A stretch of 64,000 bases of DNA from a bacterium (GTDB lineage Bacteria; UBA8248): the NCBI GenBank assembly GCA_965213685.1, contig CBDBZY010000064.1:256001-320000 (forward strand), given 5' to 3'. How positions within the stretch are numbered: position 1 is the stretch's first letter; each line of letters opens with the position of its first letter. Made by a program: the position numbers and the translations under genes. The notes below the pieces were generated by a model. The model saw only the letters and a program-made list of their open reading frames with translations. It searched no databases and was not told the origin of the DNA. This document shows positions 262-62,386 of this stretch, piece after piece.

Positions 262-413
262 GGGTAGGTCAGGCCTATGTGCCGGATGTCGATGGTAATG
301 CTCCCGTCGCTGGTTGTGCATTTGCAGAAGGTGTCATCCGGGATGCAGTCCTGCGCACCTGCCGCTGCTAAACATCCAGCTAGGGCCAACAGCAGGTGAA
401 GCAGCTTGGCCAT
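262..413 (-). CDS. MRH/CD-MPR-like receptor copy A, exon 1 only (remainder lies left of the window)
   Basis: ATG at 413 gives MAKLLHLLLALAGCLAAAGAQDCIPDDTFCKCTTSDGSITIDIRHIGLTYP, then a phase-2 donor CC|gtaagt. Signal peptide plus C-x6-CxC and xDI..YP match exon 1 of the paralogs. Near-identical to exon 1 of copy D (~40206-40350). Confidence 0.85.
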
Positions 414-1718
414 CGTGACACTGGTGGTGCTGCATATATGAATGTTTGTTGTTTCCACCTACCTATCATGGGATGCATATATCGCGTGAGTAGCACGTGC
501 GCCGCGGAATGTTCGCTCTTTCGCACATTCCCGCGAGCGAACGGAATCGCATTTTCCCGTTTTCCTCCGCTTTTTGCCGTTCGCTACACTCAATCACAAT
601 TTTGTGCACAATGCCCTATTTCTAATGCTGAAGGTCCCAGACTGCGCCACGTGGGCGGGAAAAATACGGCTGGCTTGCGAGACTAGCTTTTTACACAGGA
701 ATGACATTTACACTGCACCCGCGACGGCTTTGTTACGCACGTTCAACTGTAGAAGGAACTGAAGGGTTCCTTGTTGCTGCTGCCACAGATGCTGTCCGGC
801 ATAAGGGCATGGAGAGTGCATCATTGGTGTAATTCTATAGCTGCCGCACTCAATGCAATCAGTGAGGCAACGAAGGGACCTTGTAAGCTTTTTTCACACA
901 CCATTTACAGTTTATAATTGCCAGTCTGGTTCTCTCGTGTAAAAATGCATCATTCTAAGCTCTATAGCTATATGCATACAAAGAGGAGAGTCAGCAGACT
1001 ACATAGGGTAGTTTCTTCTTCTACCTCATGAAAAAAATTTTATTACTCAGCTAAGAGATGAAGATCTTAACACTAGAGTTCAACCCTCCTCCATGAGTCA
1101 GGCAAAGGTCAGTGCCCACTGAGTTCCTCAAAGTAGGAAGGTGTATAGCCACATTGGGTGCACATGTAAAATCCCCTCACAAGATCAGTGGAGAGGTGAG
1201 CTGTCACTGCACATCAGGTTCACCTCTGCCAGTAGTAGTATACCATGCTCTCTCTCCTCTTCTTCCTGCTCTTCTTCCATTTGACCCTCAGCCTCTTTCC
1301 ACTTCCCTTCCTATTATTTCCTCTCTTTCCCTTCCCTACTTTGCACCACAAACCTCACCTCCTCTTTCTCTCTTTCCCCTCCTTTTGCCCCTCATCCACT
1401 ACCTTACCTCTTCCATCCTCCTACCCACTTTCTTAGTAGTGCCATTTCCACTCCATAACAAACATATGCAACGGTGTACAGCCATGTGATGCACTGGCAC
1501 ACAATGTATATACATGCCTGAAAATATGACTCTGTGTTAGGATATTTGTCATGCAGCTACAGCATGTGAGAATGTCACTGTGAATAAAAAAGTCAGTATA
1601 CATGTATGTGTATATGTCTTGCTTGCTTAGGTGTACAAGAATCCCTGTGTGTTGCTATTAACAATCTTCCAGGTAGTTATACTGTAATGATCAGAGTTCT
1701 TGATAGCTCTGTGTTCTC

Positions 1719-58818: not shown

Positions 58819-59696
58819 ATCTCTACATCCGAAATGCTGGTATATTAAACTGACTCAACCTTATTCATAACATTACGCCGTCACGTGTTGGCGTCACGTG
58901 GTTTACATAGTATTATTATAATTATGACCGCAGTATGACCCTCCTACGTCCAAAATTGATACAAACGTAACTATCTAAAATCTTTACTTTTGCTGCTTTA
59001 CCTAGGCTTACGTACATAACTACACTCCCATCACTGATGATGATGAGGTCCACAGCCCTGCACTTGATCAGTCAGCTAGTCAGCTATATAACCATCACAT
59101 GTATATATAGGATTCAAGCATATGCTGAGAGGCTGGGACACGTCATATGTAGCACATGGCTATAATAACTCGTCCTCCCCAATTCTCATTCCCTTATTCA
59201 CTTCCTTTTGCCCCTCCCCCACCACCTTATAACGTTCAGTGAACAAAAAACCGAATTTCTTACATGGCAAAGCTGTATGACACATGAATGACCTGTCTCA
59301 CAGGTTTTTAGTACAGGATAGGGCTAGATGTCTTATACCTGACATTTAGCCCTATCCTCTACTGAAAATGTGTGTGTGTGTGTGTGTGTGTGGGGGGGGG
59401 GGGGGGGGGGGGGGGAGGAGGGGACCAGACATAAAGAGGTGTAGAGTCATACAAGGCACTGGTACACACATGACTGTACATGCCTAAAGATATGACATTG
59501 TGTTATAATACTTGTCATGCAGCTACAGTATGTGAGAATGTGATCACATACATCACTGTGAATATACAAAGTATTATTATGTATACATCTTAGTTGATTA
59601 GGTAGAAAAAAAGGTGTGTAGCTATTAAATGGATGATTACAATCTTCCAGGTAGTCCTACTGTAATGATCAGAGTTCTTGATAGCTCTGTGCTCTC

Positions 59697-62386
59697 CTAA
59701 TGGAGGGGCTGATAGTAAACATGACTCCATCCTGGATATAGGAAGAGGATTGAGGTAGATATTTTGGGTTAGATGTACTTGATTACAATGTAGTCAAACC
59801 GTGAATAGGAAGGGAAGGTGAGTGCAGAATGGACTTCTTTTCTTTACGGGCCCCCCTCCTGGTGTACATGTAGATCCCTCCAATCACATTTAGCACAAAG
59901 CATGACACAATAGCAACTATAGCTCTGTAAGGGACACAAATAGCACAACCTTACAACCTTGATGTGTACACAGTTCAATACCAGAAGTGTATATACACCA
60001 CCAGGGCCTTAGAAACAGGTACCCGATGAATGTGTCAGTCACAAAATTAGTCTAGTTCTATTGAGAAGACAATACATACCTATACTCGTATCTTCTACCT
60101 ATTCTTTACTACCGTATAGTGGGTATTTTTCGGGGGGGGTGAAATTTTAATGAGGAGTGAATTTTTGGCCAGTTTGTGGAAAAATTTTCATGGTCGCGGT
60201 ATACTAAACCACACCCCAGTACATTGCGCTACTGTTTTGTGGGTAAAAAGTTCATGGTTCGCCTCTCAACCACGAAAACCACGAAACTTGTACCCCCCTA
60301 AAAATACCCACTATATGGTACTACATGACAATACACATGTGGGCAAACACTTGGTTACTGACAGTGCAATGATGACCCAGCCAATCACTCCCAACTCTGT
60401 TCCTCCTCCACCTCCTCCTCCACTGGTTTGTGAGACAAAAGCAACAACCTCTCCAGTTGCTGCAAACTCCTGGGTTTGATAAATATTGATGGTGTAAATC
60501 ATCAACATCCTCCTTCCTTTCCTCCCTCCCTCCCTCACTCTTTTCCTCCTTCCCTTCCTCCCTCCCTACCTCACTCTTTTCTTCCTTTTTTTTAAACAAA
60601 TGCACATTATGTAGACAAGAACTATATACTTGTTTTCACATAACATTTTGTCTAAACCTTCATGCCTTATAGTTAGTCTGGCTTTAGTCAACCCTCAACA
60701 TGAGAGCTTTGCAGGTATGTACATTAAGTGTGAGGAGCCAAGAGCTGATCAGGCCATTTGCTTCTGCATGCAGTTGAATTGAACAACTTTTAAGAATGTT
60801 CGATGACTACCAACTGATCAAACATGCACAAATATTGCAAAATACTTTTGGAAATTTGCCTTGTGTAGAGTCTGATGGGATATGCTCAGGTTCCCCAAGC
60901 TGGTGTGGAAATATGCCAAAGAGTTCTAAAGGAACCCAGTGTGTTTGATTCACACGTATTGAGGCGGTAGAGACAGAGATATCGCCCCATTTTATGCATG
61001 AACATGTAGGGCATAAAGTATCAAACTAGGAATAATGTACCGCCAAAAGACAAACAAACATGGTCGATGAAAACATATAAGTACTGACCTATGGATGACC
61101 TACAATGATCTTTACTGCCACATAAATAATATAGTGCACTGCATGAAAATGCAACAATACTAATACACACTTTTGTTTGCAAAGTACATATTACAAATGT
61201 ATCAACCTACATAGGTGACATCAGGAAGTTCCTGTGAAAATGCAATTGTTGGAGGGTCCGTTTTTGAGTATGTAAATCTCATTTTTGCTTGTCTAAGGGA
61301 AGAAGAGCGATACCGATCAATATGCTACTATTATAGAGTCAGTAGACTCTCTATGTAGGGGTGGGGCTGACACACCCACAGTACGTGTGCATGTGAAAAC
61401 CTTCTAAACTCTCCTGAACATTGTTTCACTGCATAATGTTGCTCCCAGTAATCTCATAGCATAGCTAAAGGAAGATGCAATGTTATAAACATGATGTAGG
61501 AATGGGATAGTTGTGTGGTCTTTGTATGCCCTGCTTTGCCTGCACGCTACCATCTCTACACTCACATGTAGTTTCTGTGGTTTTGGTCACTGCCATCCCT
61601 ACATCCTTCTAAATTCTTGGAAAGTGTACTGGTGACATTATGTAAGCACTATATACATACTGCTTACCTTGCAGTACCATCTGAATCAGGATCTCCATCA
61701 AAATAGTTAATAGTAAAATAGAGGGGGTCGTAATCATTTATAAACCACGTCATGTCACTAGTCTGTCGGCCCAGTACAGTCCAACGATTTTGTGAAATTA
61801 TGTATTCGCATACCTACAATGCAGATAGTAGTAATTTAGAGAATATGCCTTTGTAAGTACAATGTATTTGTAAACTGCAAACGTACAGTAATGTGAAATA
61901 GCCAATAGTAAGTAAGTGACTTTATTGTGAGGCCATTTATGTGACAACATACAAAAATATGCATGATCCATTTGTGCATACATAGTGAATATCGAGGGGC
62001 TAAGACAATTAGAGTTAAAGCAACGTGCAAGTATACTGTGGGTGTTATTGAACATGGTTGAGGTTGAGAGAATGATAACGCACTCGGCTTCACTATGTGA
62101 TTATTATTTCTCGAGAGTGCAACAGCAGGACTGGTCAACTACACGTATGTTCTGATAAGGCGATAAGGCATTTCTATGAGGTTGTGAGCTACTGCATGTA
62201 TTTCCCACAGCTGTATGTTAACTTCCACCGCCTCTAGCATGGAGTTTATTGTACTGTTGGCACTTTTGATACGCCCATGCAGCTGTACTTACTGTTCCCA
62301 CAGCAACATCTGGCTCACAGACAATTGGTGTACAAGGACTGAATACGTATGAGTATCTTGTTGGGTGATCAGATTGAACTTCCACA
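59697..62386 (-). CDS. MRH receptor copy I, exons 2-7 (exon 1 expected just beyond the window), frameshift-type tail with ITIM-consensus VYYQPL
   Basis: Exons 62386-62293, 61813-61668, 61292-61211, 60469-60363, 59924-59800, 59731-59697 are open. Tail [33 protein letters not shown]. Confidence 0.8.

Follow-up and report, generated by a model that had tools for sequence, protein, structure and literature searches.

A birth-and-death tandem array of small membrane lectin genes of the CD-MPR/Atg27 branch in eukaryotic DNA binned with a bacterium

Why should a bacterial genome bin hold a tandem array of genes resembling the mannose 6-phosphate receptors, and what would so many copies be for? The question is raised by the window analysed here, a stretch of 64,000 nucleotides at positions 256001-320000 of contig C64 (1.64 Mb, 44% GC) in bin G000; window positions are prefixed below with w. 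A reading made from the letters of this stretch alone, hereafter the sequence-only reading, had described a hidden array of rapidly diversifying P-type lectin (MRH) receptors, apparently co-opted for the recognition or uptake of glycans. The locus is indeed a birth-and-death tandem array of small type-I membrane lectin genes, and the contig, although binned with a bacterium, is DNA of a eukaryotic host, so that the array is hidden only in the sense that its contig sits in a prokaryote bin. The reading favoured here, with moderate confidence, is that the array encodes lectins of the CD-MPR/Atg27 branch acting as cycling cargo or sorting receptors in a probable sponge.

Architecture, copies and decay of the array

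Every MPR-like copy in the array lies on the minus strand, one inverted fragment at w2081-2497 excepted, and the common architecture is one of seven exons with GT-AG introns in phases 2,0,2,0,2,0. The exons of K4 were fixed base by base from direct reading of the sequence, and a boundary search found homologous acceptors and donors in the right place and phase in copy after copy. All six models assembled as full seven-exon genes have complete open reading frames when joined by coordinates: K3 (262 amino acids), K4 (263), K5 (257), K10 (256), K11 (254) and S1 (271). Eleven copies or remnants were counted in the window, namely nine copies of exon 1 (w262-413, 10302-10483, ~20953-21091, 36179-36333, 40206-40357, 42826-43001, 48192-48349, 53463-53620 and 58661-58818), K1, and an orphan tail module. 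The array runs off both edges of the window, the outermost positions being exact exon boundaries: w262 is the exon-1 donor of K10, whose exons 2-7 lie to the left, and w62386 is the exon-2 acceptor of K1, whose exon 1 lies to the right. The copy number of at least 11, the seven-exon structure with its phases, the run-off at both edges and the mixture of intact, pseudo, chimeric and orphan copies had all been described in the sequence-only reading, and all of them, including every class of copy, were borne out. The members and remnants in the window, followed by the two clusters on the contig, are as follows.

w262-413, minus strand: exon 1 of K10 (signal peptide and start of the ectodomain); K10 is intact, with exons 2-7 at C64:252697-254053.
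w1691-10483, minus strand: K9, a chimeric copy; exons 1-5 (10483-10302, 8186-8096, 7783-7632, 3913-3832, 3640-3516) are S1-like with an open frame, and the 3' end is a K5-like frameshifted tail module (E6' 1937-1822, E7 1753-1691).
w2081-2497, plus strand: inverted fragment of a K5-like copy, with pieces of exons 5 and 4, in the last long intron of K9.
w20953-21091, minus strand: orphan exon-1 remnant, 85% identical to K4 exon 1, frameshifted by a 16-bp deletion and followed by no other exons.
w23304-23550, minus strand: orphan frameshifted tail module (E6' and E7), with a premature stop when exon 7 is read in the ancestral frame.
w31158-36333, minus strand: K7, a truncated duplicate of K11; exons 1-5 (36333-36179, 32376-32283, 31870-31737, 31549-31465, 31264-31158) have an open frame, exons 6-7 are absent, and homology to K11 ends at w31036, ~120 bases past exon 5.
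w37339-40357, minus strand: K6, a duplicate of K10 that has become a pseudogene and matches it at 90.5% identity over 2 kb; an ATG in frame is lacking, exon 4 holds an in-frame stop codon, and 29 bp are deleted from exon 6.
w41071-43001, minus strand: K5, intact seven-exon gene; exons 43001-42826, 42409-42313, 42201-42074, 41978-41897, 41629-41529, 41313-41187, 41133-41071.
w46014-48349, minus strand: K4, intact seven-exon gene; exons 48349-48192, 47658-47565, 47214-47072, 46897-46816, 46630-46515, 46346-46220, 46085-46014.
w49229-53620, minus strand: K3, intact seven-exon gene; exons 53620-53463, 52160-52067, 51849-51704, 51345-51264, 50703-50594, 49494-49368, 49300-49229.
w54465-58818, minus strand: K2, a chimeric pseudogene, 92.8% like K3 in its 5' half and 93.8% like K1 in its 3' half; exon 4 is doubled at the hybrid junction (56620-56539 and 56022-55953), exon 3 has gained 1 nt, exon 5 has lost 17 nt, and the tail is a frameshifted module.
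w59669-62386, minus strand: K1, exons 2-7; exon 1 is at w64379-64536, 379 bases right of the edge, exons 1-5 are open, and the tail is the frameshifted module (E6' 59924-59800, E7 59731-59669).
C64:246,117-320,536 (w-9,883 to w64,536): the main array.
C64:11.8-33 kb (11864-33128), both strands: a second cluster, 215 kb away.

Exon-wise profiles iterated over all stop-to-stop frames of the 22 low-GC contigs of the bin (4.9 Mb), with exon 4 of the divergent subfamilies located by a separate search, confined the MPR-like family to C64, where at least 15 units bearing exon 1 were found. A poly-Gly match on contig C16 appeared only in the first phmmer pass. The second cluster holds the intact S1; S2, which lacks the second cysteine of exon 2 and the 'CQ' of exon 3; S3, in which exons 1 and 3-7 were located and exon 2 was not found; and a solitary exon 1 that lacks an ATG. 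On the minus strand at C64:242050-242124, 4 kb past the last gene of the main array, is an orphan exon 2 of K11 type, and the repeat that adjoins it is also present in the first intron of K7.

The intact members are old. Nei-Gojobori counts on pairwise codon alignments gave synonymous divergence (dS) from 1.4 to saturated among the intact paralogs and, where computable, ratios of nonsynonymous to synonymous divergence (dN/dS) of 0.14-0.38 for the ectodomain and of 0.11-0.33 for exons 5-7, the values of old genes under purifying selection. The proposal of a rapidly diversifying family is not supported by these values, while the high divergence claimed for the ectodomains stands: amino acid identity among intact paralogs is 33-52% there versus 55-78% in exons 5-7. 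Recent pairs have dS of 0.04-0.13 and ectodomain dN/dS of 0.67 (K3/K1), 1.30 (K11/K7) and 1.11 (S1/K9), but each includes a partner that is truncated, chimeric or equipped with the variant tail, and each differs at only 4-6 synonymous sites; ratios near 1 fit relaxed constraint, and positive selection is not demonstrable from them. A quick maximum-likelihood tree of 42 full-length proteins grouped the six intact copies in one clade with three database proteins (SH-aLRT 94) and placed P0004 and P0008 within the K10/K11 subclade (98). On this evidence the expansion is lineage-specific and predates the split from the species that carry those proteins. With old genes maintained beside fresh copies in several stages of decay, the locus offers a clean example of birth-and-death evolution.

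The sequence-only reading had also credited the family with exchangeable tails. What was found instead is one module, copied four times (K1, K2, K9 and the orphan at w23304-23550), rather than a set of alternative functional tails. Its exon 6 is K5-like but has gained 9 bp (except in K9) and lost 11 bp; the frame is shifted past 'GAR', the FW box described below is gone, and the same new stop ends all four copies. Because identities among the four are alike in exons (86-99%) and introns (90-97%), selection on the module cannot be judged. A GC donor after 'TRRG', which would bring back the ancestral frame of exon 7, was considered and dropped as too far from the splice consensus.

Family, fold and binding site

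The open reading frame of K4 exon 6, which encodes the transmembrane helix and tail, matched the Pfam model ATG27 (PF09451) at E 6.6e-10 and 39.8 bits (cut-off 27) and the model Man-6-P_recep (PF02157) at 1.8e-5 and 24.4 bits, just below the cut-off of 25.4. When both models were scanned against the whole bin, the matches were exactly the eight canonical copies of exon 6, all on C64: ATG27 had eight matches, five of them above cut-off, and Man-6-P_recep had seven, again with five above cut-off. A profile built from the eight canonical copies matched 1393 proteins at E<=0.001 in a representative library of 1.84 billion, many of them exon-sized fragments and some of them full-length proteins of 240-270 amino acids. 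Each of the 10 full-length relatives scanned scored above both Pfam cut-offs, in several cases with matches that extend over the ectodomain, and two of the 10 also exceeded the CIMR cut-off. Spliced models from the window are 40-57% identical over their full length to the database relatives P0008 and P0004.

The ectodomain was reached through these relatives. A profile of 30 full-length relatives (alignment A3) matched the first 165 residues of eight of the nine models at E 2.6e-12 to 2.4e-22; K9 had no match among those listed. Searched against the PDB, the same profile matched CI-MPR at 1e-150, with up to 15 domains each matched and single domains reaching 5e-16, as well as ERLEC1 (5e-11), CD-MPR (1.4e-7 to 5e-7), glucosidase II beta and OS-9; P0008 searched on its own, as a single sequence, found only chance-level matches in the PDB (E ~1). 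The AlphaFold model of P0008 (mean predicted local distance difference test score, pLDDT, 82.7) has an all-beta ectodomain followed by a transmembrane helix. It had 42 PDB matches at E<=0.001 in Foldseek, and those listed were CI-MPR/IGF2R domains, CD-MPR and one OS-9 MRH chain, with TM-scores by target of 0.56-0.71 for single-domain chains.

Judged by profile and model, the assignment of the family to the CD-MPR/Atg27 branch of the MRH/P-type lectin superfamily holds, the window proteins being placed via close relatives. The homology to CD-MPR and ATG27 proposed in the sequence-only reading is thus upheld; the motifs it quoted are all present in the spliced models, and the MRH fold for which it proposed profile and structure searches was found by way of the relatives' profile and the P0008 model. 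The MRH domains of CI-MPR/IGF2R, OS-9, ERLEC1 and glucosidase II beta belong to the same superfamily by profile and fold, but these are multi-domain or soluble endoplasmic reticulum proteins and none has the transmembrane and tail module, or the tandem array, of the family described here. A word-indexed search of longer proteins with the K4 exon-6 reading frame found no match. A scan of genome contigs with the exon-6 alignment gave 46 pattern matches and no confirmed relatives, and a scan of metagenome contigs gave 11 loci of 1-8 kb at 44-68% identity, too short to show arrays.

The predicted product has a signal peptide, an MRH beta-domain of ~140 amino acids, a poly-Gly stalk, one transmembrane helix and a cytosolic tail of ~45 amino acids. 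In the intact copies, six cysteines are conserved in the N-terminal half of the MRH domain. The family consensus 'avCq', 'tkRq' and 'E.....Y.F' aligned to 'AVCQ', 'FQR' and 'E....YFF' of CI-MPR domain 3, and the binding-site columns of the relatives' profile line up with CI-MPR domains 3 and 5, at residues that we take to be the Gln-Arg-Glu-Tyr tetrad holding the mannose ring. By alignment to the profile, the tetrad is complete in K3, K4, K5, K10, K11 and K7. Its Gln is replaced by Glu in K1 (VCE for VCQ) and by Leu in K9 (ACL for ACQ), S1 and K9 have no Glu at the corresponding profile column, and the Arg of the tetrad is encoded at or adjoining the exon 3/4 junction. In the tail, a CD-MPR-like box, GARG(L/V)EVIPN..FW..LPFLIKDG, is accompanied by one cysteine; all eight canonical exon-6 copies share the FW, P and L of the box without exception, and the tail ends in Y-x-x-L/M/F, with T at the last place in K4. 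The poly-Gly stalk before the helix, in exon 5, is encoded by a GGN microsatellite of ~5-13 residues whose length varies between copies (w46540-46590, 50620-50650 and equivalents).

Candidate functions

The simplest reading is that of a glycan-cargo receptor, because an intact mannose pocket sits on a CD-MPR/Atg27-type trafficking tail. As for ligand, location and cargo, the proteins would recognise N-glycans of mannose type, possibly phosphorylated, either in the lumen or on the cell surface, and their tails would drive cycling between Golgi, endosomes and plasma membrane, making them cargo or sorting receptors. Divided specificities are suggested by the fact that old, maintained paralogs differ in their binding-site loops; these paralogs have probably split glycans or cargoes between them, for example the hydrolases of the lysosomes in an animal with intracellular digestion. 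Growth of the array proceeds by segmental duplication and unequal crossing-over, most of the recent duplicates going on to decay.

CD-MPR is the nearest known parallel in layout. Like the family described here, it has a signal peptide, a single MRH domain, one transmembrane helix and a short tail at a similar size, together with the Gln-Arg-Glu-Tyr tetrad, a juxtamembrane tail box with a Phe-Trp pair and a tail cysteine, and the Pfam, PDB-profile and fold matches agree. In CD-MPR the palmitoylated cysteine is Cys34 (PMC2199859). The present family differs from CD-MPR in having many tandem paralogs instead of one gene and a poly-Gly stalk before the helix, and the P0008 model is ~15% identical to PDB chains of CD-MPR in structural alignment. 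Atg27 likewise shares a type-I membrane topology and an MRH-like lumenal domain, and among Pfam models its own scores best on exon 6 and on most relatives; Atg27 too has a C-terminal tyrosine signal. Fungal Atg27, however, is single-copy and tied to Atg9 trafficking, whereas the present family is expanded and the profile of its ectodomain matches MPR domains with the full tetrad.

Several observations weigh against cycling cargo or sorting receptors, or against the evidence on which they are proposed. The C-terminal cysteine pair of the family consensus, the last pair of the domain in CD-MPR, is absent from all copies in the window. The assembled models have no acidic-cluster dileucine in their tails, which is the sorting signal at the C-terminus of vertebrate CD-MPR, and for this reason sorting at Golgi exit may differ from that of the vertebrate receptor. 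The loop between 'GD' and the binding Arg ranges from 2 to 10 residues across paralogs, variation that could represent new specificities. Pfam gave no meaningful match on single exons other than exon 6, and the fold was modelled on the relative P0008, 40-54% identical to K3-K5, K10 and K11, in place of a window protein. No public run listed as sharing the stretch is recorded as RNA.

The use proposed in the sequence-only reading, that the proteins are co-opted surface receptors for pattern recognition or uptake of microbial, symbiont or food glycans in a filter feeder, seems unlikely, though it accounts for a good deal: the expansion is lineage-specific with at least 15 exon-1-bearing units on one contig, the ectodomains are far more divergent than the tails, the variable loop lies directly beside the binding Arg, the Y-x-x-hydrophobic motif at the C-terminus would allow endocytosis from the plasma membrane, and some run labels point to sponge metagenomes. 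The intact paralogs nevertheless give no sign of positive selection, with dN/dS of 0.14-0.38, all intact copies of the array retain the mannose-binding tetrad, and the trafficking tail is of the CD-MPR/Atg27 type without a signalling domain; the retained tetrad and the endosomal-type tail motifs would fit a sorting receptor at least as well as a receptor for recognition or uptake. Searches of the literature listed no paper that ties the family to immunity, and none in which CD-MPR/ATG27-like genes are described as expanded in sponges or any other invertebrate; the passages searched of PMC11229196 make no mention of mannose or mannose 6-phosphate, and those of PMC13543439 treat lectins in general with nothing on an MPR-like family. 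A more specific version, which we regard as quite doubtful, is that MPR-like lectins of the sponge lineage turned from sorting lysosomal enzymes to serving as endocytic or phagosomal receptors, with variable loops reading microbial, symbiont or dietary glycans and with the frameshifted-tail copies retained at the surface or acting as decoys. If true, it would mean that P-type lectins form one arm of recognition in an animal of an early-branching lineage.

That the proteins are Atg27-like factors of autophagy or endolysosomal membrane trafficking, with a lectin domain that is minor in the recognition of cargo glycans, is improbable. Yeast Atg27 acts for Atg9 vesicles and ends in a tyrosine motif, as the present tails do, and the ATG27 model outscores Man-6-P_recep both on exon 6 (39.8 versus 24.4 bits) and in 7 of the 10 relatives scanned. 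Such a role sits poorly with a tetrad kept under purifying selection, with an ectodomain profile best matched to mannose 6-phosphate receptor domains, and with a many-fold expansion, which would be hard to explain for one trafficking adaptor. Finally, the array might consist largely of evolutionary debris, with decay under way and no member functional, given that six units in the window are broken, truncated or orphaned (K2, K6, K7, the remnants at 21 and 23 kb and the inverted fragment), that K1 and K9 carry the frameshifted tail and have lost the binding Gln, and that retrotransposon fragments are spread across w12-30 kb. This is very improbable: K3, K4, K5, K10, K11 and S1 keep complete open reading frames and consensus splice sites despite saturated synonymous divergence, the tetrad is retained in the intact copies of the main array, and dN/dS among intact paralogs is well below 1.

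In vertebrates, receptors of the CD-MPR type are the textbook case of a sorting receptor present in a single copy. At least 15 units, with six intact, old and maintained genes, suggest a broader use of the P-type lectin scaffold in a probable sponge, possibly to sort many glycoforms of hydrolases where digestion takes place inside the cells, or to take up external glycans. K3, K4, K5, K10, K11 and S1 are defined genes on which binding and localisation can be tested.

The host DNA and its repeats

Bin G000 comprises 7.97 Mb in 71 contigs, mostly of ~65% GC, and in 22 of these contigs, C64 included (4.9 Mb of the 7.97 Mb), GC is below 56%. C64 is judged eukaryotic because the window shows eukaryotic hallmarks, namely microsatellites, reverse-transcriptase fragments and spliced genes. 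The bin was scored 94.19% complete and 3.68% contaminated despite this 1.64-Mb contig; host DNA is invisible to marker-based contamination scores, and a bin scoring 94% complete and 3.7% contaminated is shown here to be able to contain a eukaryotic contig of 1.6 Mb. As to the host, sampled words of the stretch were present at 0.71-0.73 in four runs of one study, and several public runs that share a small part of the stretch are labelled "sponge metagenome", low shares that serve as a hint only. The array is placed in the nuclear DNA of an animal host, probably a sponge; the small shares of the runs so labelled make the sponge likely only.

Between the array members, the interval w12-30 kb is occupied by three reverse-transcriptase fragments and other repeats. 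The fragments are listed first, followed by the further repeat features of the window.

w12239-14323, plus strand: RVT_1 reverse-transcriptase fragment of a retroelement of the type without long terminal repeats (non-LTR).
w26471-28200, plus strand: RVT_1 reverse-transcriptase fragment, non-LTR type.
w29135-29878, minus strand: RVT_1 reverse-transcriptase fragment, non-LTR type.
w25192-25725: weak match to UvrD_C_2 (helitron-like).
w15558-17135 and w18235-19812: perfect inverted repeat (100%, 1578 bp) with a 1.1-kb spacer and each open reading frame mirrored.
w6300-6560, 7100-7330, 7900-8080 and 28330-28540: long (CA)n/(GT)n and (AAT/ATT)n microsatellites, intronic and intergenic.

The inverted repeat spanning w15558-19812 is either a real palindrome, a transposon structure or a fold-back artefact of assembly.

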